Under the pieces are notes generated by a model that did not search any database, was not told the DNA's origin, and was given only the letters and a program-made list of their open reading frames with translations. A stretch of DNA of 64,000 bases from Balanoglossus misakiensis (Eukaryota; Animalia; Hemichordata). Positions 5,365 to 58,000 of this stretch are shown piece by piece. The first letter of the stretch is position 1. Each line of letters opens with the position of its first letter. The position numbers were made by a program, and so were the translations under genes. The stretch covers positions 3,024,265-3,088,264 of the forward strand of contig CM082597.2 of the NCBI GenBank assembly GCA_040954595.2. The letters run 5' to 3'.

Positions 5365-8300
5365 CTATTTATCACCCTTTGCTTGGGCGGCTGTCTTTTG
5401 AATGTCCACCGTTGCATACTCTGTTGCTTCGTCCTGCACTGGGGGTTTATTGGGCTGCGCGGCACTAGGTGTTCCAGCATGATCCAAATCAGCGTACACG
5501 AGACCCTCCACATTGTTATCTGTATTGTACTGATAGTGAACAAAGTTGAAAAAAAAACATGTTATTGATATCTCAGGAAACTCAAAATAACCAGTTGACC
5601 TTTTGAAATGGAAGTGTTGGTTATAGTCACACAAGGGTATTTAACTTGTGCACTCTGCCCTGATTTCAATCAAGGTGCCTCCAGTTAAACAGTTTTTGAG
5701 TAAACAACAAAATGGCTAACGGTACATGTGTTTTACAGGTCCTGGAGGTGGTTCTTTGAAGGAAGTTCAGTGTTTTAACCCGGAAATGCGATTATTTAGC
5801 ATGGGGAATTATGATAACTCTGATGTGCACAGTTTAGTTCCTGCTTGGATTGTCAGGAAAATTGAAACGTGCAATAATTCAAGACAGGTTCATAAATAAC
5901 TCACCATTCTTGGTGGTTCTTGTGGTGGCATTTCCTCATCTTTTTGATCTAATGGGAAATGATAAAAAGTCGAGAGAGAATATTACAACATAAACCAGTA
6001 ATCAATTTAGAGCCATTTCCTGAATAACAGCCATATATCTTAATTTTCTCATCGATATAAAGTGAAATTTTCAAGAAGTCATAGAGTCTTAAAATCAGCA
6101 ATGCGTACCAGTATCTGGTTTCTTCGAGATGCTATCCTTCTTATCCTGGTATAAATGAAATAAATGTCATTAGTAAGAATGTCTTGAGATCAAAATTCAG
6201 CGTGTTGAACACGAAATATGCTATGTGCTCAGGATAGTGAGAACCCACATTTGTTCTGTGTTGGGTTATTTTGGTTAATTTACTGCAGGCTATATGTGTA
6301 ATGTACCAATTAATGACATTAAATAGAGAGTCAAGCTCAGAATACTGAAATGGAAATGGTGCAAAATGTAAAAAACGGGAGAGAAAAAATTGTCCACTGT
6401 CACCTTTTTAATGGACTTCTTGGTGGGTTGTGAATATAGATTAGCAGGGTCATCAATATCGTCTACCTTTCCACCAGTGTTGGTTTTACCGAATGAAGAT
6501 ATAGGTTCCTCTGCCAAGGAAAAGAGAAGAATTCATCAGACATTAATGAGTTTGCGATGACTGATGCATCATTTATGACAATAGTACAGTTTCCATCTCT
6601 TTTGTGTTTACTGCTAGAGTAGACAACGTTCCAGAGTCACAACCCGAAAAAGAATTAAACTTTAAGTACCGGTGAACATATCAGATCCTCGCTTGTCCTC
6701 CATGCCATTAGCAGCCTCAGATCCCGTACCTACAGGGCTTGGTCGAATTCTTTCTGGATTGTCGTAATCATTGAATGCCTCTGGAGGTCTGTTATAGAAA
6801 ACACAAATGTGTTCATCAAACTCATAAAATCAGCTGCATACTTCTGCAACTTCTACAGAACTAAACAAATATGATCTATCTATCCGTCAATTCATCTATC
6901 GTCTGCCAAATATCCGTCAATGTATCTGGCCTCAACCCATCCACCCATCTGTCCCAATACCCACTCGTCCGAATCCATCTATCCATCCAACCACAAAACT
7001 GTATCTTCCCCTATTTCTGTCACTCTTGTTTATCTAGAATGTTATTGTACTTACGAATCATAATTTAATGCAGCCATCTCTGAAACAAAAGAGAATATAA
7101 TTAATGGTATCCGCATATGAACCATCTCTTTCAATGTAAACTTACTTCATGAATAACTTTAAATCCCACAATTGATTTGTAATATTATCCTTACCTGAAT
7201 CAACGTTTCGGTTATCAGTTGGCTTTTTCTGACGTTTAATCATGACAGCGAGCACTATTATGATGATAATAAGGAGAAGAATTCCACCAGAAATGCTGGC
7301 AATGAGGGGGACGGGTATTTGTGTATTTGGCTGTTTAGCTGAAAGTTGAAAGTAAATTATTCAGAAATAAATCATGCATGTCTGAAATGTATCCAGTGAA
7401 TGTTCACTTTGCCATCATTCAAAACGTTGCCCATGTCACATGAAAGTGTGCTTACATGTCATGTAATCTATACTTTGTTGCGTTCATATTTTTTTATATT
7501 GACACAGACCAGGCACACTGTAGGTGAATAGCCATGCATACACCATAAATATTTAGTCATAAACAAAATTATTATTACACATTGTTAGTACCTGTCAGAA
7601 TTGCAATAAAAGAATTTAGGTCTACGCATCTTACTTGGTTTTTCCTCAACAGTTAGCTGTATTTTATGAACATCTGAACCAACATAATTAGTGGCGGTGC
7701 ATGTGTACTCCCCTCCATCAACATCTGAGACACTCGCAATGCGCAAAATCTCGCCATCTCCTCTGTGTGTGCTGCCTTTCATCCAAGTGATGGTGGCCAA
7801 GGGATAAGCATCGACGTTGCATTGCAGGTTGACTGCCTCTCCAATGGTTGCTGTCACAGCATCAACTCCCTTGTTGGTTATACTTGGCGCGTCTAAAATG
7901 TAATGAGACATATGGCAGATCAATAATGTTGTCCAGTTATCAAATAAAATTACTAAGTCAGTCTCTATGGATATAGAGCACTTATTCAATAGACTATCCA
8001 CAATCTCGGCAAATTGTTGGGGGATTATGATCCATACACTAGCTTACTCTTGCTTGGTGGTCAGTGCCACAAAATTTACTTATCTACCAGTTAACGAATT
8101 GATTGATTGATTCGACCAACCTGTGGTCTGTATACACGGTCTCTACTGTAGATCTGTTGATAATGCTGTTAAGCTGTAAAGTACCAGAATTTATTATCAT
8201 AGTCATAAAAATGACTTGACGTTCTATAGGTATATTCTGCATACGTGATTTAGTTATAATTAGGGCCTACTCACAGTGAACAATGATCAATACTGATGAA

Positions 8301-11300
8301 CTTGTTCCATTGTCAAAACTGCCGTCAACAAATTCTGTGGTGGCCGCACAGTAGTAACTGCCATTACGCCATCGCTCAATAACCCTGAGGTCAAATGTGT
8401 GATTTGTGACCCCGTCCTCATTCACCATGGTGTCGACCTCGTTGGTTGTTTCATTAACATGATACAGTGTAATAGAGTGTGGATCCGGAATACCGTCAGT
8501 CACTGTACATGTTATCTTGGTTTGGTTGCCTTCTATGAGAACATCAGTTGGCCCAGTAACTTCAACATCTGCAATGTCTGGTAGGTGAGAAGTTCATAAA
8601 ATGAAAATTAATTCAAAATTGGAATCAATATACAGCACAAAACATATTCCAAAATATTTCATATTCATGAAATTAAAAAAGTGTTTGCACTCAAATAAAA
8701 TTAGAGTCTGACTTACATTCCACAATGATCTCAGTTGTATCAAATCCAATACCAACATCTCCATCATCGAATGCAGTTTCAGCTGAACAGTTATACACAC
8801 CAGCGTCCAGACGTTTGATCATTTCAATGGTGTGAACCAATTCTGATGTGATTATGTCACCATCCTTTGTCCATTCCTGTGTTGCCGGTGGATTAGAAGT
8901 AACTGTACATTGAAGAGTCACTTTGCCATTTTCTTTAATCCTGTTAGAAGTTGCGTTTACTACAATTTCAGGTCCAACTGTTAAAATGAGCGGAAGTTAT
9001 TACTAATTAGGTAAATTAAGCATTAACATTAAATAATGTAAACGACACATACTATATATTTTGCAAGGTTTATCAACTATCAATCAATACTTACATTGGA
9101 CATCGAGATAAGTTCTTTTATTTCCTGAGCCCTCTGTGCCATCATAATATGTGTTATTTCCAATACACACATAAAATCCAGTCATACTGCGAATGACGTC
9201 ATTCAAGATAAGTTTTGAACCAGACATTGTATCCCCTTGAGGTAGACGCCATGTGAATTCGACACTAGCCGGGTTCGCATCTAAGACGTTACATATAAGT
9301 GTGACATTCTCATACTCTCTAGAAACATACCCCATGGGCAATGCAAGTCTTGGTGGATCTACAAAAAAAGTTATACTTTAGTGTGATACATTTGTTAATT
9401 GACTTTTGTCATATTTTAAGTCCCTTTGAGTTTCAAAAGAGGATGTAAATTAATTCATGGAAGGTAACTACCACACAAAAATTCATATAAATGCACCTAT
9501 AATATAAAGAAAACTTACACTGTACATCAAGGTTAAACGCCTGTGTGTCGGTCATGGTAACATTGTTCCAAAATGTAGTCTTTGCTTCACAAGTATAGTC
9601 TCCACTTTGATGGCGCATGACATTTTCAAATCTCAGTATTTCACTATTGGAGACGGTGCCTGTTGTTGTCATCCACTGAACATGTGGTGCAGGATTGGAA
9701 CTGACGTTGCATAGTTTTTCAAATTCCCTGTCTTCAACTTCAAATATTGTCTGTTCAAAGTCTTCAATTTGCGGCGAATCTATGTTAAGAGAACTCATGA
9801 TTAGTCTTTAAGTTAAGCTCCAAATATAACCTAGACTGAATAACAATATATATAATCCCAGGAATGTTTGTTTTAAATGGCAGTTTTATAAATTGAATTA
9901 AGTGTTACTTACATTGAACGTCAACAAAAATCTCAGTACTTCCAGTGCCTTCCGATTCATCCCAGAATTCATTTGTTGCAATACATGTGTGCAAACCATG
10001 ATCATCCCTTGAAACCGTCGTTAGGTTCAACCATCTACTGTCATTACCAGAAGTGTCTTGCCAATAAATTGCAGTAACATCAGGATTGGCATCAATAACG
10101 CTACATTCTATATATATGCCATCACCAGTAATCACAGAACCACTGTTGCTAGCATCTCCATGAACTGTAGCTTGAAGGGAAGCGTTGTCTAATATAATGA
10201 GAACAAATAATCATAAATATGTAATCAATCAAAGAAGGTGTCACAATGTCTCAGTTATTGACAACGTCAATTTTTATATATATTCTCTTATAAATCTATA
10301 CTCACACTGTACGTCCAGTTCAATCATGTCACTTCCGTATCCTTGGTTTTTGTTGAAAAATGTATTATTGGCATGACACGTGTAAATTCCCCCGTCTGTT
10401 CTCTTCACATTGCTGAGGTGGAGCTGGGAAGTATTGTTAAGCCTGCTGTTGTCAGGGCCTGTCCATGAAACAACTGCTGGTGGGTTTGCATCTACTTCGC
10501 AGGATGCATTGTATTGTTTTCCGTCTATTACTTTCCCATTACTTTTGTCAGTTATAGTTGCAAATGGTCTGTCTGTTGAAAACATGATACATTTATACAA
10601 TATTTATAGCATGATTAATGCTTAGTAGCCAACTTTGTTTTAGTAGCTGTGAAATAGTCTACCTTGCATGAATAAAGTAATGTTGATCTCAGACGTAACA
10701 AACAGCGTCATGAATGTAAGTGAAAATGAATAGTGAGTATTTCACAACTGAGAATAAATGGTTTCTAGCTTGCTCTGATAGTTTATCATAACAGTAACAG
10801 TTGCCATATTAATCACACTGCGGAATTGACAGTAATGATAAATTTGTAAATGAATTATACTTGAACTTACAATGCACACTCAGTTCTACGGATGCAGTAC
10901 CATTCCCCTTCGTACCATCATAAAAAGCATTCTGAGCGACACATTTATACGTCCCGTTATCTTCCCTGGTGGCATTTTCCAGTATGAGCGTCAGGTTCTC
11001 ATAAATGTCACCATTGGGTAATAGCCAATACCAATTATCAATTTTATCCGGGTTTCCCATCTCCTGAATTTCACACTCAGCAAAGTAGTTATCACCTTCT
11101 ACAACCACATTGTCTGTTGTCTTGGTAACATTCACGATCGGCGGAACTAAAACGACAAAATGCACAGTGTGTGTTATATCAAAGTACGCTTATGAGATTA
11201 ATACACTGAATAAATATTTACAAATCTCAGGACACCTATAGTTTGAAATGAATTTTGAATCAGCTGCCCAAGCATCAAAGAATGTCAAGATACTGAAACC

Positions 11301-13174
11301 CGTTCACGCGAAATTTTCTTTTGAACCCAAGGAAGTTATGAAACTCTGTAGGGATTTACATTGACAGAATACTGCAGAAGAGAGCTCCTACAGTTGAAAT
11401 ACCAGTACTATATCTGAAATGTTATCTCAGGCTAATAAAGCATCCTCAATATTGGCAACATTGACTTGTGTACCTTAATTTGTATATACAATAATGAAAA
11501 TTAACACTTGATGTTATAGTTGGAAAATTGTGTGTTCCTAAATTAGGATTCTGCATGTTGAATTATAGAAATAAAACCAAGATATTTTAACAACTGGTTG
11601 CTGAAAATGAATCATATAATAGAGATGTCCCTTACACTCTACGTTCATTGTGATACTCTCACACATTAAGTTGCTTTCGCTTGCCAGGGGTAGCGTGATG
11701 TAATCAATTCCACAATATAGAGTGGCTCCATTTTCCTCTCTGGTAAATGATCTTGAAAATATGTGTTCTTGTGATGCATTTCTAGACTCTTCTTGACCAT
11801 TCACAATCCACACTGTTTCACCTGGTGGTACTCCATTTTCACTGCTGCAATTGAATATTGTTTCCTGTCCTTGTATTGTTGTTTGTCCCGGATAAACTTG
11901 ACATGTTGGACCCGATTCTGCAGTGAAATAAAACACATACATTACTTGAGTCATGACCTGTCTGACACTTTTTTCTACATGTGAACATTCATCATTTGTC
12001 TTGTTCAACTACTTTCACCGTGATAGGTATGTGCACTGCTACCTGCCAATGTCGAAATAAACACGCAAGAAATTTTGGCAGTGTCTAATTATCCCTAGCT
12101 GATAGTATTGGCTAAAATAAAGCTGGCATGGACTTAAAAGCAAGTGGAAAATTTGCAAGTTGCTGCTGATAGTTGACCCACATGTAAGACGCTATCTTTG
12201 TGATTCAGGCTTCTAGATGTAAAAGCATTGTACAATTGTTGCAATATTCCCTGTGACCTCATTGAAATATGCACTGCTTTATATGTTTGCATATTCAAAG
12301 TGGAATACTATTCATTTTTAATTCAAAACTATGCTACTGAATAGATATGGACAGATCAAATACATTAAAACAGTGGCTGTTTCAAAATAGACAGATCTTA
12401 CCTATAACATACAAGGTGATGCGTTTAGATACTGAATTATCATATGCTTTGCACTCGTGGTCCCTTTGAAATTCCGTTGTAACATTTTCTATATACAGAT
12501 GATAGTAATATTCATTTCCCATGGAACCTATCTTCACGGCATAATCATGATTGGCGATAGTACTACCAAGTGATATCTGCGCAGGCGTGTCTGCTGTATA
12601 CCTATACCAAGATAATAGCTTGCCTCCACGTTCGACAACACTGCAGTTTATTTGCGTTGTTGTATTGATAATGGCCAAGGTTGGTATTGGTTCTTCTTTG
12701 AATTCAATTGTCCGACCTGTAAATAAAACAGTATCTAACGTCCATCTGCTATTATATTTATCTCATGTAATTATTTTGGCTTACGCCTGGCAGTATATTT
12801 GCATAGGCGAGATAGTAAGCTTACTTAATGTTAGTTTTTTCTAGAAATGCTCTTGTAAGTAAATTTAACACTCGAGCTAGAGTCATGAAACTGAAAAATA
12901 AAAGAAATACAACATAATTTTTTTATGGTACTTTGTGCTCTTGATAAACCAGCAATATCAGAAAAAATATATTTGATACACCAATCACAACAGCCATTCT
13001 TAAAATATCGATTGCACAGACAGGAAGGTAGACAGACCAGTGTGACATGTTTTGCGCAGGGCTAAACCGATCACATTGTCTAAAGTAGATGCACTTACAT
13101 GTCCCCACAAGAACTGCAACGATCAGAATAAAATCGATGAATTTAACCTTGTTCTCTGCGATGAAGATCCCCAT
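5365..13174 (-). CDS. Receptor A: type I membrane protein, 10 Ig domains (nephrin/Kirrel/CD22-like), cytoplasmic ITIM+ITSM; about 1139 aa, 18 exons
   Basis: GT-AG exons with consistent phases: 13174-13099 (signal MGIFIAENKVKFIDFILIVAVLVGT). Ig1-10: 12716-12402, 11917-11636, 11146-10871, 10572-10306, 10188-9913, 9779-9519, 9358-9095, 8977-8717, 8577-8275, 7892-7635 (all phase 1-1, C...W...C pattern). TM 7338-7195 (LIASISGGILLLIIIIIVLAVMIKRQKK). Tail: 7079-7055, 6788-6730 (alternative donor 6670), 6510-6404, 6145-6109, 5948-5905, 5529-5365 (GLVYADLD...ATEYATVD, stop TAG). Confidence 0.9.
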
Positions 13175-16100
13175 GATGATTCAAATCCTACCCACGGGTA
13201 GAATTATCGGAACACAATTTGAGCACACAGCTTACCCACCACATTGCTTACAGCAATGGCGCAAATAGCATTTGCAAACTAGGTTCACTGCACAGTAGTA
13301 CCATCCACGAAATTCAGCTTTAACACTATCTCCAGAGGGCGTTGTACATTTTCCTCTGACATGAGTTGAAATGTATACGAGGACAAGCGGGATTAATGAC
13401 CAACTGGCGTATGATACTTCAAAATGAATGCCATTATTACAAGCATTCTATGACACTTTCAATATTTATGACATTTCAGAACATCACAGGGAAATGAATA
13501 TCAGAAGACGGACATATATGGACGAATTTAAGGCAAACGTGTTTATAAGCTGTACCTGTTTTGTAACAGTATGTGCCTTTCTTGCAGGAAAATGTGAGTT
13601 TTACACTTTACAAAATGTTGAGTTTACCAGCCTAATTTTGATTGCATAATAGCAACGAAAATTATGGTCACTTAACTGGATTTCTGCCATATTACCTATG
13701 TTTGGAAATGCTACATGTATAATACAAATGCGACATAGACATACAAGTCAGCCAATGTAAATTCAAATGTGTATGAATTCTAGGGCGTCTTTGCTCAAAT
13801 GTTTTCCTAGAAAGAACTTTCTTGATAGAAATATAGATATGGTTGCGATGTGGTGTCTTGTACATGTTAGACCTTGGTTTTACATGCAGGTTATTCAATT
13901 GAATTCAAAGAAGAACCAATACCAACCTTGGCCATTATCAATACAACAACGCAAATAAACTGCAGTGTTGTCGAACGTGGAGGCAAACCATTAACTTGGT
14001 ATTGGCATACTGCAGACAAGTCTACGCAGATATCTCTTGATAGTACTCTCGCTGATGATGATTATGCCATGAAGATAGGTTCCATGGGAAATGAATATTA
14101 TTATCATCTGTATATAGAAAACGTTACAACGAAATTTCAAAGAGACCACGAGTGCAGAGCATTTGATGGATCGATATCTAAATGCATCACCTTGTATGTT
14201 ATAGGTAAGATCGGGATGTTTAATGTATTTGATCTGTCCATGAATCTATTCAGTGAATTATATAATAGTTTTGAATTAAAAATGAATGTTGCATCGATTT
14301 GAATATGGCAATATATTAAAATTCTGCATATTTAAATGAGATTGATATTTACCAGAGGGAATATCACAACAAATGTACAATGCATATAAATCTAGAAGTC
14401 TACCGGCAATAATAGTGTCTTACAGATGGGTAAAAATATCAGAAGCAACAGGCACAGTTTCCACTTGCTTTTCAGTGCATGCCAGCTTTACTTTCACCAT
14501 AACTATCAACTATGAATGGGTATACACTGTCCAAATCTTTTGCGTTTTTACCTTGAATGCTGGCAGATAGCAGTGTCCCTAGCACCAGAATGAAAGTAGA
14601 TGGCCAATGAATATGAATGCAAGCATGTAGAAAAAATGGGTCAAAATATGATACAGCAATTGTACAAATGTGTGTGTGTGGATATCTTTCGCATTACAGG
14701 TAATATATCATTAAATAGGATCATGGCTCAAGTAATGTTTGTGTTATTTCACTTTATCCACAGAGTCTGGTCCAACTTGTCAGGTTTATCCAGGACAAAC
14801 AACAATACAAGGACAGGAAACAATATTCAATTGCAGCAGTGAAAATGGAGTACCACCAGGTGAAACAGTGTGGATTGTGAATGGTCAAGAAGAGTCTAGA
14901 AATGCATCACAAGAACACATATTTTCAAGATCATTTACCAGAGAGGAAAATGGAGCCACTCTATATTGTGGTATTGAATACATCACGCTACCCCCGGCAA
15001 GCGAAAGCAACTTAATGTGTGAGAGTATCACAATGAATGTACAATGTAAGGGAAAACTCTATCATATGATTCATATTCAGCCACCAAATGTTGTAAACAC
15101 ACACACACAATCTTAATTTATGAACACATCATTTTTACAACTAACAACGAGAACTCTAATTCTCAAGAACTCATGCTCAAGCTATTTCAGATGTTTTGAC
15201 AGCAACACGCTTTGGGGCTAATTATTCTTTCATCTTCAAATCTATATAGACGATGCGACACTCGCAACTGAAGTTCATGGATATGCTAGCGACAATGGTT
15301 CTGTAATTAATGGCGATGACATATATCTGAAATGTAGTGTTATTGATGCCAATCCCACTGTCACTGGAATATACTGGCAAGACAATCCTGGCGTATACAG
15401 TAGATGGTTGAACCTAACAGCAGTTTCAAGGGATGATCATGGTTTGCACAAGTGCATTGCAACAAATGAATTTTGGGATCAATCGGTAGGCACTGGAAGT
15501 ACTGAGATTTTTGTTGACGTTCAATGTAAGTAACACTTAATTAAATTTATAAAACTGCCATTTAAAACAAACATTCCTGGGATTATATATATTGTTATTC
15601 AGTCTAGGTTATATTTGGAGCTTAACTTAAGGACTAATCACATGAGTTTTTTTAATAACATAGATTCACCGCAAATTGAAGACTTTGAACAGACAATATT
15701 TGAAGTTGAAGACAGGGAATTTGAAAAACTATGCAACGTCAGTTCCAATCCTCCACCACATGTTCAGTGGATGACAACAACAGGCACTGTCTCCAATAGT
15801 GAAATACTGAGATTTGAAAATATCATGCGCGATCAAAGTGGAGACTATACTTGTGAAGCAAAAACTACATTTTGGAACAATGTTACCGTGACCGACACAC
15901 AGACGTTTAACCTTGATGTACAGTGTAAGTTTATTTTCAATTATAATGAAGTGGCATTTATATTAATTTACATGGTGTAGTAATCGTCAGTAAATTAATT
16001 CACAGTCTCTTTTAAAACTCAAAGGGATTTGAAATACCTGTATAACGAAAGTAAATTAACAAATGTCTCACACTGAAGTATATCTTTTTTTCTTAGATCC

Positions 16101-17178
16101 ACCAAGACTTGGATTGCCCATGGGGTATGTTTCTAGAGAGTATGAGAATGTCACACTTATATGTAACGTCTTAGATGCGAACCCGGCTAGTGTCGAATTC
16201 ACATGGCTTCTACCTCAAGGGGATAAAATGTCTGGTTCAAAACTTATCCTGAATGACGTCATTCGCAGTATGACTGGATTATATGTGTGTATTGGAAATA
16301 ACACATATTATGATGGCACAGAGGGCTCAGGAACTAAAACAACTTATCTTGATGTCCAATGTAAGTATTGATTGATTGTTGATAAACCTTACAAAATATA
16401 TAGTATGTGTCGTTTACATTATTTAACGTTAATGCTTAATTTACCTTATTAGTAATAAGTTCCGTTCATTTTAACAGTTGGACCTGAAATTGTAGTAGAC
16501 GCAACTTCTAACAGGATTAAAGAAAATGGCAAAGTGACTCTTCAATGTACAGTTACTTCTAATCCACCGGCAACACACGAATGGACAAAGGATGGTGACG
16601 TAATCACATCAGAATTGATTCACACCATTGACATGATCAAACGTCAGGATGCTGGTGTGTATAAATGTTCAGCTGAAACTGCATTCGATGATGGAGATGT
16701 TGATATTGGATTTGATACAACTGAGGTCATTGTGGAATGTAAGTCAGACTCTAATTTTATTTGAGTGCAAACACTTTTTTAATTTCATGAATATGAAATA
16801 TTTTGGAAAAGCATGTGCTGTATATTGATTCCAATTTTGAATTAATTTTCATTTTATGAACTTCTCACCTACAAGACATTGCAAATGTTGAAGTTACTGG
16901 GCCAACCGATGTTCTCATAGAAGGCAACCAAACCAAGATAACATGTACAGTGACTGACGGTATCCCAGATCCACACTCTATTACACTCTACCATGTTAAT
17001 GAAACAACCAATGAGGTCGACACCATGGTAAATGAGGACGGAGTCATAAACCACATTTTTGAGTTCAGGGTGATTGAACGATGGCGTCATGGCAGTTACT
17101 ACTGTGCAGCCACCACAGAATTTGTTGACGGCAGCGTTGAGAGTGGAAAGAGTGCAGAAATACCAGTATTTGTTCACT
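8275..17178. repeat. Large imperfect inverted repeat: arm 8275-12716 versus arm 13890-17178
   Basis: Ig exons of A and B have identical lengths (315, 282, 276, 261, 264, 261, 303 nt) and largely identical sequence. Several introns are near-identical too (9780-9912 vs 15526-15663; 8978-9094 vs 16361-16477; 8578-8716 vs 16739-16875). Confidence 0.92.
13175..13517. promoter_or_regulatory. Putative shared bidirectional promoter/5'UTRs of receptors A and B
   Basis: Only 343 bp separate the divergent start codons (13174 minus; 13518 plus, with an alternative in-frame ATG at 13494). Confidence 0.55.
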
Positions 17179-20100
17179 GTGAGTATTTTTTGTAAAAATT
17201 GGATTGTCTGCTGAATCATCATGTTTACATGAAGGCAGTCATTCATTTACCAATGACTCGTCATTGTATCACATAATTGCAGATCAACCTACAATACTCA
17301 ACAAGACAGGTGATGTAATTGATGCAGCTATTGGGGATACAATCACTTTTGCCTGTACTGTGGATGCCTACCCAGACGCTACCATCACATGGACTAAAAA
17401 CGGCAGTGTGCTGCAGGAAGGATCTACCAATACTTTTACAGTTAGTGATGCTGTGGTAGAAGATGAAGGAATGTATAAGTGTACTGCACATAATTATCTT
17501 GGCTATGATGAATATACTATTCAACTCAAAGTAAACATGGCAAATGGTAAGCACCATTTATTCCTAACCATTACATTTTTCGATTCTGATGATAATGATG
17601 ATTGTGATGATCAGTCAAAAGAATATGAAACTAACAACAGTATAAAATGTCAATGTCCATTTTCAGTTTCATCCACGTCACCACCACTTGTGACAATTAT
17701 ATCATCAGTGGTCTGTGTAGTGGTCGTGGTTGCAGTGACAACCATTATTGTGTTTAAAAGGTGCAGAAACACGAAGCATCCACGACAGGTAAAACAGGTA
17801 AATCGTATTTTAAACATAAATGTGTTTTATTTCATATTTATTGACCCCATAGAGATGAATAGAATTGGTTAGGTAGGACACAGGTGACTACAGAAATTAG
17901 ACCATTCTTTCATGCAAATGCATGATCAGAATTTTAAGAACATCATGCAGTGTATATGTAGAGTCAACTAAGTATACCAAGCTGGTCCTTCATTGTTGAA
18001 TTACGTAGTTGGGAGTATGTAGAAATGGGGCCTTAACGCCTGATAGAAGATATATCTAAAGACAGGGGTCGAGAAAGACAATCCAGAGTTAACACAAGGA
18101 ATGTGGCCAGTAGTTATAACTCTTGATCAGTTTTATATCACCGTTATTTGTGTTCTTCAATCCAGAGAGAAGAAAGTGAACCCTACGAAGACTTGCAGAG
18201 CGGATACCAGGTATGATACATGCTTGGGTTTTAGATTCCATCCTGAATTGACCACATCTCTATTTTCTGCAAAGAATAATTAACTATGGCCCAATTGTTT
18301 ACTTAATTACTAAAAAAATAGATTTCCCATTGTGAAAGGGCCAATTTTCAATCCCTGATGCTCGCATTAGTTGTTGACAATATGTGATGGATTGACTTGA
18401 TAAGATTTTGAACAAGGCTTTCCACCACATTCACCTCCATCTACGATTTCTTATTTATAGCCTGCAGAGTATACATCTCTTGAATTACCGGTATACACTA
18501 ATCCGATACCTGACAATGAACCTGTCTACACAAAAGTTGGAGACGTGGTGCTGGAATTTCCCCGAGAACTCGTTCGGAAGGGAGATTTCATCGGAGAAGG
18601 CACCTTTGGCAAAGTCTTCAAAGCTAAGGCACGTGACTTTGCTGGTAAAGATGGAGTGACGGTGTTGGCACTGAAGATGTTGAAAGGTAAATGTGTTTAT
18701 ATCACTGCAAACACCTGTGAATTTTAATTTAAAATCATTTACTAATTTGTTCATTGAGGATGAAGATTATAACCCTTACAAGGAACACAAACCATTTATC
18801 AGTCTGTCCAGGTAATATTTCCATACATGCATGTATTTATTGTCAATTGCTTTCTTCAGATAATGCCTCAGATGAGGATAGAATAAAATTCACTTCTGAA
18901 TTGGATTTGCTGAAACGTGTTGGTCAACATGAACATATCGTATGCATTAGAGGATGCTGTATTGACAAAGGTATGGTGTATTATATTCTGTCATTGACTC
19001 TTGTATGTATGTATGTATGTATGTATGTATGTATGTATGTATGTATGTATGTATGTATGGTATGAATAAAAATTTATGTGATGATAAAGATAACATTTGT
19101 CGCATACTACAACCACAGAACCCCGCTATATTTTGATGGAATTCATGTCAATCGGTAACCTGAAGAAATATTTAAGAGACTGTCATAAAGCAAACACGGA
19201 TAGTTATGCCAACGCCAGAGTCAAGTTATTCGACTTGAAAAATGAGGATCTCATCACATTTGCGCGGCAAGTTGCTAGTGGAATGGAATATCTGGCATCG
19301 AAAGAGGTAGGGGGACAATAGTTATGTATAGATACATGAGCTACTAGCTTACACCAATGACAGTGCGTAAATTTGCATTCTGTACCTTTGAGCAGATATG
19401 CCACAAATAGTGGTAAACACCTGAAGCATATACTTGCTAGCATATGTACCTTAGAAACTGCTCTGGCAACAGATGGTATAAAGCTGAAACAACTAACAAC
19501 CACTGGTGATTGAATGGAGAATACGAACAGTGATTTGAAGGGGCTCTATACAAACAACCACAAGGGAATCATAGTATATTAATCTGATTAATCTGATTTT
19601 ATCTTGATTGCCTAGTGTGTGCATGGTGATCTTGCTGCTAGGAACATCTTAATGAATGCCAACAGGGTTTGTAAAGTGACGAACTTTGGTCGTATTGAGG
19701 ACACAAAGATGGGTGAAGATGCGGACAGTAAACAGGTACTGAAAACACATGCGTGAAGTATAATGATGCAGACAGTAAATAGGTTCTGAACCACAACTAA
19801 CACATATATTATAAATATGCCGATTAATATATATACTGACAATAATCACAATTTATGTTTGTTCCAAAGAAACGCCTGCCAATTCGTTGGATGGCTCCTG
19901 AAGTCTTGTTTTCATCCGAGTATTCCACCCAGGGTGACGTTTGGTCATTTGGAGTGGTTGTTTGGGAGATCATCACGTTGGGTAATGAACAGTAAAATAA
20001 ATAAGTAAATAAATAAATAAAGGTAGTATGCAAGAAATGAAAGAAAGAATGAATGGATTTAATTAATTAATTATTTACCCAAGATGGGTAATGACGAAAG

Positions 20101-20830
20101 TTCATCTTTCATATCAATGGATACAATTCTTCCAGGTAACACACCATATCCGGGAATGTCATCCCAAGACGTTATCCAATTCCTTCAAGAAGAAGGTCGA
20201 ATGAGTAAACCGAAGTATTGCAACAGCGATCTGTAAGTACGGAACAAAGAGATTGTAGAGAGGAGAGACACAATGGGGAGGATGGGTGCTGAATAAGTCA
20301 AAACTAATTGGCAGACTAAACTGGACCATATAAACACGACATGGATTATATTGAGGTGTTTCTCTAAACAACTGCAATGTAAGACTGAATTGGTATCTGA
20401 AGGAAGAACAATAAGTTATGTTTTTTCATCAATAGGTACGTGTTAATGATGAACTGCTGGTCTCAGAAAGCAAGCAGACGACCATCATTCACTCAACTAG
20501 TTCGGGAACTGAAGGAATTTGAGAAAGAGAAAGAGGTATGTACCGGTATGCATAATTCAAGACTATCCGAAATTCAGTTTTCAACATTCTGCATTCGTGA
20601 TCTCTGCCATATTTGTTAGTGTTTATCGTCAAGTAACATCAGGGAAGTTCAGTGAAATGCTGGAGTCAATCTAAACTGAAAATTATCGACTTGAAGAATA
20701 AGCTTCCCAAGCATGTTTTTCCAAAACGCCTACTCATAAATTTGACAACACCTTTATTTTCTCTGTACAGCCCTATGTCGATATACACGGTGCGTATGAA
20801 GATGTGCAAGGACTGGAAATGAAAGACTGA
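13518..20830 (+). CDS. Receptor B: 8-Ig receptor tyrosine kinase-like protein (FGFR/RET-type kinase domain, probable pseudokinase) with juxtamembrane ITAM; about 1160 aa, 19 exons
   Basis: Exons: 13518-13593 (signal [25 protein letters not shown]). Ig: 13890-14204, 14764-15045, 15250-15525, 15664-15924, 16097-16360, 16478-16738, 16876-17178, 17283-17546. TM 17667-17788 (or 17797). Then 18166-18210 ([15 protein letters not shown]), 18461-18686 (PAEYTSL...LEFPRE...IGEGTFGKV...LALKMLK), 18860-18970, 19119-19306, 19616-19735 (VHGDLAARN...VTNFG), 19870-19981 (LPIRWMAPE...[12 protein letters not shown]), 20136-20232 (GNTPYPG), 20436-20535 ([12 protein letters not shown]), 20771-20830 (stop TGA). 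The frame stays open throughout. Confidence 0.9.
19003..19039. repeat. (TATG)n microsatellite in an intron of B
   Basis: gtatgtatgtatg... about 9 units. Confidence 0.9.
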
Positions 20831-30991: not shown

Positions 30992-32130
30992 CTAGAATGC
31001 CAGAGAACCAGTTAACAGCGCTAACCTGCCAGCTATGACGTCAGCACTGAGCGGAATCATAAACTGTTGGGGAAACCTCTGTCGGTGGGCGCTAAAACTC
31101 CGGATGACATTATCAGTTGCCATGACACCACTCTTCCCCACGATGAGGTCGAACAACGGCAGCCAGAGAACGTCACTAGAGTCTAGTTTCTCGGCCAGTG
31201 CCACTATTTTACCGCCACCCATTTCCGAGAAACGGTACTTCTTCAAGTCCGCGGACGTCATTTGAGAAATTGTGACCTTTGACGGGTGGTCACTTGTACT
31301 CTCCAGACCGCATTTAAACGTCAAGTCGGCTTCTTCCAGAGAACAACTTCCCCCGTTCCAGTTTTCTGTCGTACCGACCACGGCACAGTTGACAAGATTT
31401 TCAGTACTAACCGGCATATTCTCTGGCAAAATATTATGCAGTTCCGCTGAAATTTTATAAGTTCTGCTGGAAAACTGGTCGAGATGCACTGCCATTCCCG
31501 TCTTGATGTTTTCTTTTGTAAGAATGACATCGTTTAGAATTTTTGCAGGGGATTTGATTCCTGATCTGAAATGGGAAAAATTTCTTGGTTTAGTTACAAT
31601 CAGAAGCACGCTTTAACTTATCACCAGATTTTACAGGGTTTTCGGAAACAACGATACCATCTCCAGATCATGGCAGTACCCATTTGTGTATTTCTTCGTA
31701 AGAAAGTGACACTTTACCAAGTTGAAATGCCATACAAACCCGTTTTTGCGGCTGTCGTCAAATTGCCAATGGCCATCGTAACACACAGCCGTTCCTTCGC
31801 TGAATTGAAAATTGTCTATGTCTTCATGAACCACGCTAACTTTACTCCTTGTAGGAAAGAAGCAAAACGTGATAAGCAGTCGCGAAATTCATCAGTTTGA
31901 AATACGTTCATCCTATAAATATGCACCAAATTGATGGATGTACGGACGGACGGACGGACGGACATTCAGACAAAAAAATGAGTCTTACATCATACACATA
32001 ACAGTGCAACAACTATCGCTTACCCGAAATTATATGACGTCGTCAGTACATGGTTTATGGGCTCACAGAAGTATACGACCAAACACAGCGTTGCAACTAC
32101 GATTATGAACATAATCGACCCAATTTTCAT
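30992..32130 (-). CDS. Uncharacterised protein with N-terminal signal peptide/anchor, about 280-300 aa, 3 coding exons
   Basis: Exon 32130-32024 (MKIGSIMFIIVVATLCLVVYFCEPINHVLTTSYNF, donor GG|gtaagc). Exon from 31847 (SKVSVVHEDIDNFQFSEGTAVCYDGHWQFDD...; donor uncertain, about 31680 or 31635). Last exon 31565-30992 (about 190 codons, GC-richer than flanks, stop TAG). No family recognised. Confidence 0.6.
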
Positions 32131-55086: not shown

Positions 55087-58000
55087 ATGCTGACCATTTG
55101 TGTTCTATTGTGTTGTTTGAGTCCCGGCATATCAGCACTAAGTAAGTCATATTCTACTTCATTCTAAGGCATATATATGGGAAGAAATTTGTGTTTTAAG
55201 CTTTGTCCAACTCTTGAAAACAATCGATCACAAGAGCAAACTTTGTTTTTTTATCATTAAGGTTTTCTGGTTGAACCCAGTTCCACAACTGCAGCGGTGG
55301 GCAGTACCATAATCCTGCAATGCCAGGTGGCGGACAAACCAGTCGATGCAGTCGTCAGCTGGATGGGCGGAGGAGAAGTCTTGACCCTGGATACGACAGT
55401 TATTACCGGAGATGGAAGACACTCTGTCGTGGGTGATCAAGGCAGCGACGAATACAATTTCCAGATAACCGACGGGCAAGTGGCCGATTCCGACATCTAC
55501 CTATGCACAGTGTCGGTTAACTCAATTGTGCAGATTGTATCGGCGATGGCGACCGTCACAATTGATCGTAAGTACATCCCGTATATCAACGATGCCACAA
55601 AGATGCTGGCATTGCATGAATGAATGAATGAATGAATAAATGAATGAATTACTTCCATGTTGACTTCTCCTTGTTATTGTCTCATCCAAACAACAGCCAA
55701 TCTGACCCTGCCACCACCAGCTGATACAACAGTGGACACAACCATCGCATTGACATCTTCACAACCAGTGACGACACAACACCCTGCAGGTAAATTGACG
55801 TCTACTACAAGTATATAAGACGCATCTTTAAACACAGAGGTGTGTGATTTCGTATTTTATAATACAAAATTGTTGAAGTTATGATTCTTCCCCTCTCTCT
55901 TTCGCTCAGGTACACTCAACGACCTCGTGTCATTGCTGCAACACGTAAGTTAACGATGCAATGCTGGTGATAATTAAAAAGTCTTTGCTAACCTTCTCAA
56001 GCATCGGCAGTTTCTATTACTTTACTTTATACGTCCATTAACCCAATTATTTCAAACATGATTGATTGATTGACTGATGATGATGAAGATGATGAATATA
56101 TCGTCGTAAATCATATTATAACTGTTATGTTTTTGTTATTACTATTATCATATTACTATAACTATTGCGTTGTAGGTCACCGAGGATGATTACCTGACAT
56201 TGGCTGTTGGCCAGATGTACATGTCACGCCTAAATGATTTCTTCCAATCAGGAGCAATCACCGAGGCGTCCAACCTTACCATGGCAAATGATATCATCAT
56301 CAGTTTAATCTACAAGACTAATACCACCATCAGTGGTGACATCACTGCAGCCGATTTAATAAATTTTATCGAGGTGAATGTCATAACTTATTCATTCTGC
56401 TAACTAGCCTCGGTCGATGACATAGGATAATGTTTTGTTACAGCTAGCATGGACTTTGTGCAGGAAATGTTTTAATAACATTATTAAGTCCACATAATTC
56501 ATCACTGGAGAATTTGCCATATCTACTTTTATCTTACAGGTTACTTTAGACACAGCGGATCATCACACCGACCCTGCTTTAAGCAAATTATGGCTTTCCT
56601 CAGGCGAGGTAAAGTGAATTTGTACCTATATTTCATGCATAGAACTGGTGAAGGATATCTGCAATAAAAAGTCACAAAATTTAGGTTTCTAGTGAGCGGG
56701 AATGAACAAACGTACACATGATCCATCAATCTTAGCTAAGACTTATTATTACATAAGCTACATGTACATGTACAACCATACCTAGTGTTCCTTTTAGACT
56801 CTACTGTTCCCTTAGAGAGAGAAGAAGTCATTGACTGATACGAAAGCCAACCCTCAAAAAGAGGCTTGAGAAACGATATAAAAATTTAAATCACGTTGCA
56901 GTGAAAAATAATCCTGCTGCTTTTCAGAAGTCGCATGCATGACGACGAACAATGAGTCTGTTTTCATACTGCACACTGTTGAAAAGGCCTTTCTGCATCG
57001 ACAATGTAGTAATGCAAAATCGTCAATGTCTGCTCGGAATTAAGCTGAGTTTATAAATGATAGATGATAGTCTGAGATCCTTCCTGTAGAGGAAATCAAG
57101 AAATCTAGACAAACGTGATCACACAAAGAAGCTGACTCAAGATCTGTCTTTTACCGCCAAACATTATTATTCCTAACAACAGCTATCAATTCCATCTCCC
57201 AAAAACAGACAGACAGATCTAGACATGCAGGCAGTCATACAGGCCTACAGAGAGATATATACCGAGAGAAACAAAGACATATACAGACAGACAGTGAGAC
57301 GGACAAGGGAAAAACAGTTTGAACAAACAGCAGAATAAACAACAATCTAAACACAGCATCGAAATATCAACTTATTTCTTACACCATTTGCAGGGTTTGA
57401 GCATACCCGAGATGTCTGAGATATCTATACCCATCATTGGCACTTTGCTAGCACTTGACGAGTTTGCAGTGTGCATCAATGACTATGTTAGCGAGGATGG
57501 AGTTAATGCCTATAACACTGGACGAGATAATTTTGGTATGCTATGGGTGGAATTTTTGCCCTCTGATCCATATTATTTTGATATTTAGACTTTTCCTAGA
57601 CTATATCTGTTCATACTTTACACTCGAGGTATGTTCACCAAAGGTTTCATGGATTTTGTTTGTAGATGTCAACAGCAGCACGCATACTGTCGATGACCTG
57701 GACGAATTCTTGGTTATTCAGATCTCAGACATGATAACCTTATCAATTCCCAGAGCTCTATTACAGACAACAGGTATGGATATACAAGAGTTGTTTTGCC
57801 TAACAAATCCTTGTGTTGCTTTGTATGATATCAGTTTTTGAATTATTTTTACAGTGGTAAGTTCTGCATACAAATATACCAACACCATCTTAAGTCCCGC
57901 TATCAATGTGGTGTCTATAAAATTCGTCATGTCTATAAAATTTAATTTTATCAATTATGTTTATTTTTACAGATTCTGACGAGGTCATACTGACATATAT

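Follow-up and report, generated by a model that had tools for sequence, protein, structure and literature searches.

A head-to-head hemichordate gene pair predicted to encode activating and inhibitory immunoglobulin receptors

Two predicted receptor genes, A and B, lie head to head in the window (the whole 64,000-nucleotide stretch of DNA analysed here). Their ectodomains are nearly the same, whereas the tail of A bears an ITAM-type motif and that of B motifs of the braking type; therefore, the locus probably encodes an on/off pair resembling those of vertebrate immune cells. More specifically, we favor, with a probability of about 0.6, the reading that A and B constitute an invertebrate activating/inhibitory pair, in which the activating member is an ITAM-bearing receptor pseudokinase and the ectodomains are matched by gene conversion.

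Divergent genes with homogenized ectodomains

The following features define the pair and its shared tracts:

13518..20830, + strand: gene A, predicted activating partner (19 exons, 1163 aa; open model with AG/GT at every junction)
5365..13174, - strand: gene B, predicted inhibitory partner (18 exons, 1158 aa; open spliced model)
13175..13517: 343-bp gap between the divergent predicted start codons, a candidate shared promoter
17667..17797, + strand: transmembrane (TM) exon of A, with an alternative phase-0 donor at 17788
7195..7338, - strand: TM exon of B, 60% identical to Ptychodera flava (P. flava) P0001 and ~17% to gene A
15272..17185, + strand: main homogenized tract, covering Ig exons A4-A8, introns included; its inverted counterpart lies at 8268-10166 (91.7% identity across 1916 columns)
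13877..14636, + strand: further shared tract, 78.8% against 11969-12729
14721..15092, + strand: further shared tract, 92.2% against 11589-11956
10306..11146, - strand: two Ig exons of B that are absent from A, with P0002 counterparts at 57% and 45%

Gene A is predicted to encode, in order, a signal peptide, eight Ig domains, a TM segment, an ITAM-type juxtamembrane segment, and an FGFR/RET-like kinase fold. Pfam recovers Ig on all eight Ig exons and PK_Tyr_Ser-Thr on four of the five kinase exons scanned, and the TM segment is hydrophobic, with a 19-residue core devoid of charged residues. The gene B product comprises a signal peptide, 10 Ig domains, a TM segment, and a 179-aa tail without a kinase; from Ig8 to the C-terminus it matches the P. 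flava RefSeq protein P0001 at the residue level, with the TM segments 78% identical in the domain comparison.

The signal-peptide exons of both genes are 76 nt long. Amino-acid identity is 76-97% in the seven Ig domains shared by A and B, and three short introns match at 93-95% in DNA; in contrast, identity is 44% in the membrane-proximal Ig domain and 17% in the TM segment. The dS between A and B ranges by domain from 0.017 to 0.39, a spread expected if conversion had occurred repeatedly and at different times. Comparison of A with B does not demonstrate positive selection: across the shared exons, dN is 0.062 against a dS of 0.150 (overall ratio ~0.4); one domain has 9 non-synonymous differences and 1 synonymous difference, too few for a test.

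A comparable arrangement is suggested in P. flava, where P0001, with an ITIM+ITSM tail, and P0002, with an HGD/NFG kinase, have the same recorded contig size (655,253) and accessions four apart; their adjacency is read from contig size and accession order only. In two distal Ig domains, A and B are 93% and 90% identical and P0002 and P0001 86% and 80%, whereas cross-species pairs are at 45-52%. In the tree of this distal block, A and B form one clade (100/99) and P0002 and P0001 another (89/94), and AU tests on the block reject both B+P0001 (p 6.5e-60) and A+P0002 (p 2.8e-5). In the tree of the membrane-proximal Ig and TM block, A groups instead with the P. flava kinase genes (94/99), an A+B clade there not being formally rejected (p-AU 0.057). 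That partners are alike within each species and less so across species points to gene conversion, by which the outer parts of A and B have likely been kept matched. Similar ectodomains, opposing motifs, linkage, and homogenization restricted to the ectodomain (the last to be read with the proximal-block p of 0.057), by which paired receptors are recognized, are all found at this locus.

Opposed cytoplasmic tails

The signaling motifs map to these exons:

5365..5529, - strand: last exon of B, with ITIM Tyr1117 (codon 5496) and ITSM Tyr1143 (codon 5418)
18166..18210, + strand: mini-exon of A with the first YxxL (Tyr818); 45 nt, phase 0-0, with the splice scores given below
18211..18460, + strand: 250-nt phase-0 intron in the ITAM spacer, falling after spacer residue 5 of 8
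18461..18686, + strand: exon of A with the second YxxL (Tyr830), Tyr838, Tyr849, the kinase Gly-loop, and the beta3 Lys

P. flava P0001 and Glandiceps P0043 retain both the ITIM and the ITSM of gene B, and the two motifs co-occur in 0.18% of shuffles of the gene B tail. Neither tail carries its partner's motif, the ITAM pattern being found in A only and ITIM with ITSM in B only. Among the other kinase-free family members, five of eight lack both ITIM and ITSM; an 'ITIM' match in P0058 was discounted, as it sits within the TM segment. Separately, an ESM Atlas search with the C-terminal part of P0001 gave, as a lead only, CD22-, ICAM5-, and CEACAM20-named clusters at 0.90-0.92.

On the gene A side, the initial annotation had proposed that a mini-exon, when joined to the acceptor at 18461, creates an ITAM across the junction, and this structure is confirmed at the level of the genomic sequence and gene model. 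The 45-nt exon has CAG/GT flanks and phase 0 at both ends, the 18461 acceptor (TAG) is in frame with the kinase, and joining 18210 to 18461 yields YxxL-x8-YxxL in the predicted transcript within the open 1163-aa model. Scored with matrices derived from the remaining modelled splice sites of genes A and B (33 acceptors and 33 donors), the exon reaches 14.6 bits and ranks first; the region from the TM exon to 18461 offers 53 open phase-0/0 candidates, of which the runner-up scores 5.7. A search for an extra exon between 18210 and 18461 returned just two candidates, both with negative scores and neither credible. The rival in-frame acceptors at 18199, 18201, and 18470 were rejected, scoring -2.7, -7.5, and -3.6 against 8.5 and 4.5. 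Fourteen open in-frame splice paths exist; the motif appears in just two, both using 18166 and 18461 (with either TM donor).

The resulting motif, formed by Tyr818 (codon 18184) and Tyr830 (codon 18470) with a spacer of 8, is the only YxxL/I-x6-8-YxxL/I match in the 367-aa cytoplasmic part of gene A; in a post hoc test, the pattern arose in 0.32% of 100,000 shuffles of the 59-aa juxtamembrane segment. It had been called canonical, with upstream acidic residues. The acidic residues are indeed there, as Glu at -2 and -4, and pattern and spacer agree; however, 'canonical' slightly overstates the case because position -3 is Ser. Thus, of the two forms given in the available portion of PMC2832619, the motif matches the relaxed E/D-x0-2-Y and fails the strict D/E-x-x-Y.

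Relatives were sought with exon 18461-18685: a word-index search found none of 66 candidates significant, and an exhaustive search then gave 38 hits. A tandem YxxL/I is found in eight of ten hemichordate relatives against none of the 14 other RTK hits; as several of the eight are near-identical copies, they represent about four or five lineages. Among P. flava models with the full juxtamembrane segment, seven of nine have it. The expectation that its spacing would be conserved did not hold: the spacer is 10 in six of the eight, 9 in one, and 12 in one, such that 10 is commonest and x6-8 occurs in none of the ten relatives. In P0012, the two motifs are 15 apart. The ITAM-type role with predicted Syk/Shark binding is therefore partly supported, as the tandem motif in relatives, the likely dead kinase, and the ITIM+ITSM twin speak for it, while the unconserved spacer of 8 and the missing strict -3 acidic residue do not.

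These same data bear on a reading that we consider unlikely, if worth weighing, viz., that A and B are a real pair acting in adhesion or development, with the juxtamembrane tyrosines of gene A being ordinary single-SH2/PTB docking sites rather than a Syk-binding ITAM and the x8 spacing incidental. Across the family, the spacer varies from 8 to 12, the juxtamembrane segment has 3-5 tyrosines in differing registers, and the most conserved of them, Tyr849, which aligns with a tyrosine invariant in eight of eight aligned relatives, lies outside the ITAM. The gene B tail also has three YxxP sites, which are typical of Nck/Crk adaptors. Such a role would recall the human pseudokinases PTK7 (with seven Ig domains), ROR, and RYK, placed in Wnt/developmental signaling in the available part of PMC13259870. 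Against this, opposed motifs on ectodomains homogenized separately in two species are the pattern of leukocyte paired receptors (PMC3210942, in the portion available), the receptor family has expanded in P. flava, occupying at least five contigs, and gene A does not group with PTK7.

Splicing of the mini-exon

The initial annotation had also raised the prospect of a splice switch. Enumeration of the splice paths bears out its premise that skipping the mini-exon keeps the frame and leaves no ITAM; a regulated loss of Tyr818 would turn the receptor down and is compatible with the activating/inhibitory pair, though we hold it to be improbable. Donor 18210 and acceptor 18461 are only moderately strong (ranking within the bottom quarter to third among modelled sites), whereas acceptor 18166 exceeds 79% of modelled acceptors. 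The one hint from relatives is P0002, the kinase gene presumed to neighbor the ITIM gene in P. flava, whose RefSeq model joins the TM exon directly to the kinase exon, reproducing the exact skipped junction, and lacks the first YxxL; however, this model looks faulty because it also misses one entire Ig exon and some of the kinase, and the tandem motif persists in most P. flava models, as noted above. The exchange of ITIM and hemITAM through splicing in Botryllus FcoR genes, described in the available text of PMC12582321, offers a parallel. On the other hand, phase-0 introns are normal inside CEACAM ITAMs, where one splits a YxxL and in gene A one falls in the ITAM spacer (PMC5112662 and PMC2832619, as far as available); therefore, the symmetric mini-exon by itself is no evidence for a switch.

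A predicted pseudokinase and its clade

Two further exons of gene A are relevant to its catalytic state and its remaining tyrosines:

19616..19735, + strand: catalytic-loop exon, with HGD for HRD (19622) and NFG for DFG (19682)
20771..20830, + strand: last exon, with Tyr1146 (YxxI), Tyr1153, and the TGA stop

The best solved relatives of the gene A kinase are RET/FGFR. Of the residues whose loss marks a pseudokinase, viz., the beta3 Lys, HRD Asp, and DFG Asp, the last is Asn in gene A, and the activation segment has no tyrosine; the kinase is on these grounds likely catalytically dead, and signaling by gene A would rest on docking tyrosines. The Tyr1146 YxxI is also present in P0003, P0010, and P0024. 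The DFG Asp and the activation-loop tyrosines are lost together in A and in all three clade members from P. flava whose segment is complete, whereas four of four DFG-bearing controls keep one or two activation-loop tyrosines. A, P0002, and P0003 carry Asn in place of the DFG Asp, and P0012 and P0029 read NIG. HGD alone is no sign of a dead kinase, because P0157 combines it with DFG.

A reading that we regard as doubtful is that gene A encodes an atypical RTK with catalytic activity, able to phosphorylate the tyrosines of its own juxtamembrane segment, with B opposing a true kinase rather than a scaffold. The intact Gly-loop, beta3 Lys, alphaC Glu, catalytic Asp, and catalytic-loop Asn would suit such activity, as would the 59% identity of its kinase to P0003, the AlphaFold model of which returns FGFR kinases in Foldseek, and the case of Glandiceps P0010, with a similar Ig type and YxxL-x9-YxxL, in which HRD and DFG are both present. 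However, the residue replaced is the Mg-binding Asp, no activation-segment tyrosine remains, and without a canonical DFG Mg2+ binding is expected to be precluded, as is said of STYK1 in the available portion of PMC13259870. The P0003 model (mean pLDDT 65.7) is mute on catalysis because its catalytic/activation region, like the juxtamembrane segment, falls below 50. Cad96Ca-like and STYK1 clusters are among the nearest to P0003 in the ESM Atlas, an observation we record as a lead only.

In the kinase tree, six P. flava kinases form the sister group of gene A, which makes P0002 a co-orthologue rather than a proven one-to-one orthologue. This clade (98/99) stands apart from the RET, VEGFR, and PTK7 rows, of which gene A is accordingly not an orthologue; from FGFR it is set apart by its 8-Ig domain plan only, the tree being without a full FGFR kinase. 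Two Glandiceps proteins, P0010 and P0043, agree in recorded contig size and are 13 accessions apart, but we do not regard them as matched by conversion, since their Ig domains are by eye not near-identical and P0010 has HRD and DFG. The actual relatives of the locus bear the automatic RefSeq names 'FGFR2-like' (XP_070550559.1), 'Cad96Ca-like' (XP_070549486.1), and 'NCAM1-like' (XP_070550563.1) in P. flava and 'hemicentin-1-like' (XP_077985356.1) in Glandiceps talaboti; the P. flava and Glandiceps relatives share with it the kinase clade, Ig types, and ITIM+ITSM tail, with the pairing, motifs, and DFG loss going unrecorded in these names.

Finally, it is very improbable that gene A represents a recent copy, chimeric or in decay, or that the inverted repeat is an assembly artefact, leaving the motif functionless. 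Gene A does lack two Ig exons found in B and P0002, and many P. flava models are fragmentary, but the models of A and B each run open for more than 1150 aa with every junction AG/GT, dN is well below dS in the shared exons, and the copies differ mosaically by 3-21%, each having its own TM segment and tail with separate P. flava counterparts.

The predicted pair and known systems

Under the activating/inhibitory reading, both receptors may bind the same or an overlapping ligand and may be co-expressed from the 343-bp gap. Receptor clustering would lead a Src-family or partner kinase to phosphorylate Tyr818 and Tyr830 of A, which would then provide docking sites for Syk or Shark, kinases with tandem SH2 domains; the kinase fold of A would serve as a scaffold, and the gene B product would oppose A by recruiting an SHP-type phosphatase via Tyr1117 and Tyr1143. 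By analogy, the likely setting is innate immunity or self/non-self recognition, where paired receptors usually work. To our knowledge, acorn worms are not an established allorecognition model. As for the downstream enzymes, Hydractinia has Syk/Shark and SHP (10.1101/2022.03.04.482883, in the part available), but in one kinome paper Syk is classed as chordate/vertebrate.

Vertebrate paired Ig receptors under conversion include, in the available portions of the cited papers, SIGLEC11/SIGLEC16 (PMC5701461), CEACAM1/CEACAM3 and the Xenopus ceacam pairs (PMC5112662, PMC2832619), and the KLR and PIR families, for which the term 'merohomogenization' is used (PMC3210942). Like these, the present locus combines a homogenized ectodomain with separate TM segments and tails, and ITIM+ITSM with ITAM; the Xenopus ceacam pairs and SIGLEC11/16, as described there, also share its opposite orientation. 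The differences are equally clear: the start codons are 343 bp apart here against the ~9 kb given for SIGLEC11/16; gene A has a whole FGFR/RET-like kinase fold after the ITAM, where vertebrate activating partners have a short tail or a charged TM segment with an adaptor; and the host of A and B is likely an invertebrate (hemichordate), with resemblance to Siglec/CEACAM seen only in generic Ig folds.

Among marine invertebrates, Hydractinia Alr (10.1101/2022.03.04.482883) and Botryllus FF/FcoR (PMC12582321) resemble the locus, so far as the available text of these sources goes, in being clustered Ig-superfamily genes with ITAM/hemITAM and ITIM tails. FF/FcoR are likewise encoded as gene pairs, but as receptor and co-receptor rather than ectodomain-matched twins, and, unlike gene A, neither system is there described with a kinase or pseudokinase domain; the available part of PMC12582321 mentions neither 'kinase domain' nor 'gene conversion'. 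From the pseudokinase side, PTK7, ROR1/2, RYK, HER3, EphA10, EphB6, and STYK1 share with gene A the RTK plan, an altered DFG, and expected non-catalytic signaling, according to the portion of PMC13259870 available; its eight tabulated activation-loop motifs do not include NFG, and its main text, to the same extent, makes no mention of 'ITAM'. STYK1 further differs from the 8-Ig gene A in having almost no ectodomain. The combination in gene A of multiple Ig domains, an ITAM, and a kinase fold thus appears, from its sequence, to be without match among the known pairs compared.

Implications

Paired receptors with gene-converted ectodomains are known from vertebrate leukocytes, where they are taken to indicate that pathogens exploit inhibitory receptors. 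Our literature search found no hemichordate immune receptors of the paired type. This locus offers a concrete pair, with two named tails and one shared ectodomain, in a pattern repeated in a second species. If the pair works as predicted, it would bear on the age of the ITAM/ITIM balance in deuterostomes and on how pseudokinase receptors acquire new outputs. More tentatively, hemichordates, and perhaps sea urchins, may possess an undescribed immune receptor system that follows the paired-receptor logic of vertebrates, in which an RTK that lost catalysis and turned ITAM scaffold and an ITIM/ITSM twin are expressed from a shared promoter and, through gene conversion in each lineage under pathogen pressure, stay matched in ligand. 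Were this so, gene-converted paired Ig receptors would extend beyond vertebrates, and a route would be apparent from growth-factor RTKs to immune activating receptors.

A likely activating/inhibitory receptor pair

As judged from their sequences, the plus-strand receptor gene A and the minus-strand Ig receptor gene B are likely to be the activating and inhibitory partners of a hemichordate receptor pair subject to gene conversion, the activating one being an ITAM-bearing receptor pseudokinase. The relevant features are:

13518 to 20830, plus strand: gene A, 19 exons, 1163 aa open, AG/GT at each junction
18166 to 18210, plus strand: mini-exon of gene A, 45 nt, phase 0
18461, plus strand: acceptor of the next gene A exon, phase 0
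13174 to 5365, minus strand: gene B, 18 exons encoding 1158 aa; ten Ig domains, then a TM and a kinase-free tail of 179 aa

The tandem tyrosine motif of gene A

The spliced model of gene A runs from a signal peptide through eight Ig domains and a single TM helix to a tyrosine kinase domain, and its cytoplasmic part holds one match to the ITAM pattern (Tyr818 and Tyr830, spacer of 8 residues), a pattern that 0.32% of shuffled juxtamembrane segments reproduce. The initial annotation had proposed a canonical ITAM, YxxL-x8-YxxL, created by joining the mini-exon to the acceptor at 18461; both sites lie where it placed them, in phase 0, and the pattern is borne out as a feature of the open 1163-aa model. 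The term 'canonical' holds for the spacing and for the relaxed acidic form of the consensus, but not for the strict form with an acidic residue at -3 (both forms from sections of PMC2832619). Splice matrices built from the 33 other acceptors and 33 other donors of the two modelled genes score the mini-exon at 14.6 bits, against 5.7 for the runner-up among 53 open phase-0/0 candidates; two of the 14 open splice paths of gene A produce the motif, and the join from 18210 to 18461 is a predicted junction at the gene-model level. Acceptors rivalling those of the motif exons score below 0, as do the sole two candidates, within intron 18211-18460, for the intervening exon that the annotation had named as evidence against its proposal.

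Conservation in relatives turned out differently from the spacing then envisaged. From 45 sequences, two without a Gly-loop and 18 with <60 juxtamembrane residues were dropped; YxxL/I-x6-12-YxxL/I occurs in 8/10 hemichordate relatives, these eight representing about four or five lineages, versus 0/14 other RTK matches (10 named non-hemichordate, four unnamed). The spacer has 10 residues in six of the eight, 9 and 12 in the remaining two, and 6-8 in none of the ten. Ptychodera flava P0012 carries its two YxxL/I motifs 15 apart, and the P0002 model from the same species lacks the first, its TM exon being joined straight to an exon starting with PxxY. Since the relatives' spacers run from 9 to 12, we take the conserved element to be a loosely spaced tandem tyrosine motif and not one with the textbook spacer; as a whole, the earlier interpretation is partly supported. 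That these tyrosines are ordinary docking sites of a non-immune pair is a less likely alternative. A regulated splice switch at the mini-exon, itself compatible with paired receptors, appears unlikely.

A putative receptor pseudokinase

The closest solved relative of the first kinase exon of gene A is RET; those of P. flava P0003 are FGFRs. Gene A keeps the Gly-loop, beta3 Lys, alphaC Glu and catalytic Asp, with HGD in place of HRD, NFG in place of DFG and no tyrosine in its activation segment; in a P0003-EGFR alignment both replacements are in register. HGD alone is not decisive because another database protein, P0157, combines it with DFG. DFG loss is common to gene A, P0002, P0003 (all NFG), P0012 and P0029 (both NIG), and its presence in these four P. 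flava relatives argues that it is old and rules out a sequencing error. By the sequence criterion in parts of PMC13259870, this mixture of retained and replaced residues likely marks a receptor pseudokinase; an active atypical kinase seems quite improbable.

A YxxI right behind the kinase (20771-20830, plus strand) is kept in P0003, P0010 and P0024, and is presumably placed like the PLC-gamma site of FGFRs.

Gene B and the shared ectodomain

Self-comparison of the window gives three inverted tracts (8268-12729 versus 13877-17185; 91.7%, 92.2% and 78.8% identity) that fall in gene B, whose predicted start codon is separated from that of gene A by 343 bp and whose tail has an ITIM (Tyr1117) and an ITSM (Tyr1143) at its end. 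A and B share 76-97% identity in seven Ig domains and 93-95% in three short introns, as against 28% for the signal exon, 44% for the membrane-proximal Ig and 17% for the TM exon; directly past exon A8 identity drops from ~90% to ~50%. Synonymous distance is 0.017-0.39 depending on domain, overall dN/dS is ~0.4, and gene A being a non-functional copy is hardly credible. Conversion between oppositely oriented genes of vertebrate receptor pairs is described in parts of PMC5112662, PMC5701461 and PMC3210942.

Ig domain A7/B9 (16478-16738 versus 8717-8977) has nine non-synonymous differences versus one synonymous, too few to test, and is a possible site of post-conversion divergence. The gene B tail (6404-7079, minus strand) has three YxxP tyrosines (1001, 1011, 1068) ahead of the ITIM and ITSM, of which 1011 and 1068 align by eye with tyrosines of P. 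flava P0001; given these candidate adaptor sites, B may not be purely inhibitory.

Relatives and concerted evolution

One shared Ig exon used as query found a single protein among 43 candidates, P0001, which can be aligned with gene B across the TM and tail and carries the ITIM as well as the ITSM, lending the gene B model independent support. When the first kinase exon was searched exhaustively, 38 matches came up, P. flava proteins ranking highest, and a profile search found Ig-type relatives in P. flava, Saccoglossus and Glandiceps among the matches listed (120 of 216). Glandiceps P0043 also ends in ITIM and ITSM; of eight kinase-free relatives scanned, five have neither, and another only a false match in the TM, plus TxYxxV. 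The window probably comes from an acorn worm closer to Ptychodera than to Saccoglossus or Glandiceps (support 93/95), but distinct from P. flava, to whose Ig domains its own are 45-61% identical. A 19-row kinase tree, which left out matches with <170 residues past the Gly-loop (including P0007, P0016 and P0029), puts gene A in a single clade with eight P. flava proteins (98/99), to which neither Glandiceps P0010 nor the RET, VEGFR and PTK7 rows belong.

P. flava P0001 and P0002 lie on contigs of one recorded size with accessions four apart, a closeness read from records. Two distal Ig domains are 93% and 90% identical between A and B and 86% and 80% between P0002 and P0001, versus 45-52% across species; the membrane-proximal Ig is at 42-49% in every pair of the four, and the TMs of B and P0001 match at 78%. 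In the distal-block tree (8 rows, 139 columns) partners pair up by species, and neither B+P0001 (p 6.5e-60) nor A+P0002 (p 2.8e-5) survives an AU test. In the tree of the proximal Ig and TM, A clusters with kinase genes of P. flava (94/99) and B is nearest P0001, though the test falls just short of rejecting an A+B clade (p 0.057). Because the two tails are older than the divergence of the species, these sequences are most simply explained if the outer domains were homogenised separately in each lineage, ending at the same boundary.

The P. flava family (P0002-P0016, P0029, P0040-P0045, P0058) is expanded over contigs of 0.66, 0.71, 0.80, 2.96 and 50.6 Mb, and near-identical copies on different contigs suggest a polymorphic or multi-haplotype cluster. 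In Glandiceps, P0010, an RTK whose HRD and DFG are intact and which has a YxxL-x9-YxxL motif, and the ITIM+ITSM Ig receptor P0043 lie on contigs of one recorded size, 13 accessions apart; they may represent an older state of the pair system with an active kinase.

Other features of the window are:

22281 to about 27700, minus strand: PRDM-type gene, PR/SET and C2H2 zinc fingers (Pfam PRDM2_PR, zf-C2H2), tail-to-tail with gene A; a possible synteny anchor for locating the pair in other genomes
55261 to 55623, plus strand: lone Ig exon (I-set/V-set), with no DNA-level match to gene A or B in the window self-comparison; probably part of another gene
30992 to 31612, minus strand: open frame of 206 codons without a Pfam match

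Proposed signalling and its setting

D'Aniello 2008 is said to survey amphioxus tyrosine kinases, and another paper reportedly deals with an amphioxus ITIM receptor. Our literature search, mostly of the main texts of open-access papers, returned nothing on hemichordate ITAM/ITIM receptors or on a receptor pseudokinase that bears an ITAM and has an inhibitory counterpart; expanded invertebrate RTK families described in the amphioxus work, subscription papers or supplements could overlap with the gene A family. Among invertebrates, ITAM and ITIM tails on Ig receptors have been described in parts of PMC12582321 and 10.1101/2022.03.04.482883. The latter, in part, also covers ITAM-Syk/Shark and ITIM-SHP pathways and places both Syk and Shark in Hydractinia; a portion of PMC8662651 lists Syk as chordate-specific.

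From these pathways, we infer that a ligand would cluster receptor A, whereupon an outside kinase would phosphorylate its juxtamembrane tyrosines and a tandem-SH2 kinase could dock on them, while B, on the same ligand, would recruit an SHP phosphatase and cancel the A signal. ITAM-Syk/Shark and ITIM-SHP signalling are established pathways. We place at roughly 60% the paired-receptor reading, in which A activates through its ITAM and a tandem-SH2 kinase and B opposes it through SHP, with an immune role for the pair that would follow by analogy with vertebrate pairs.
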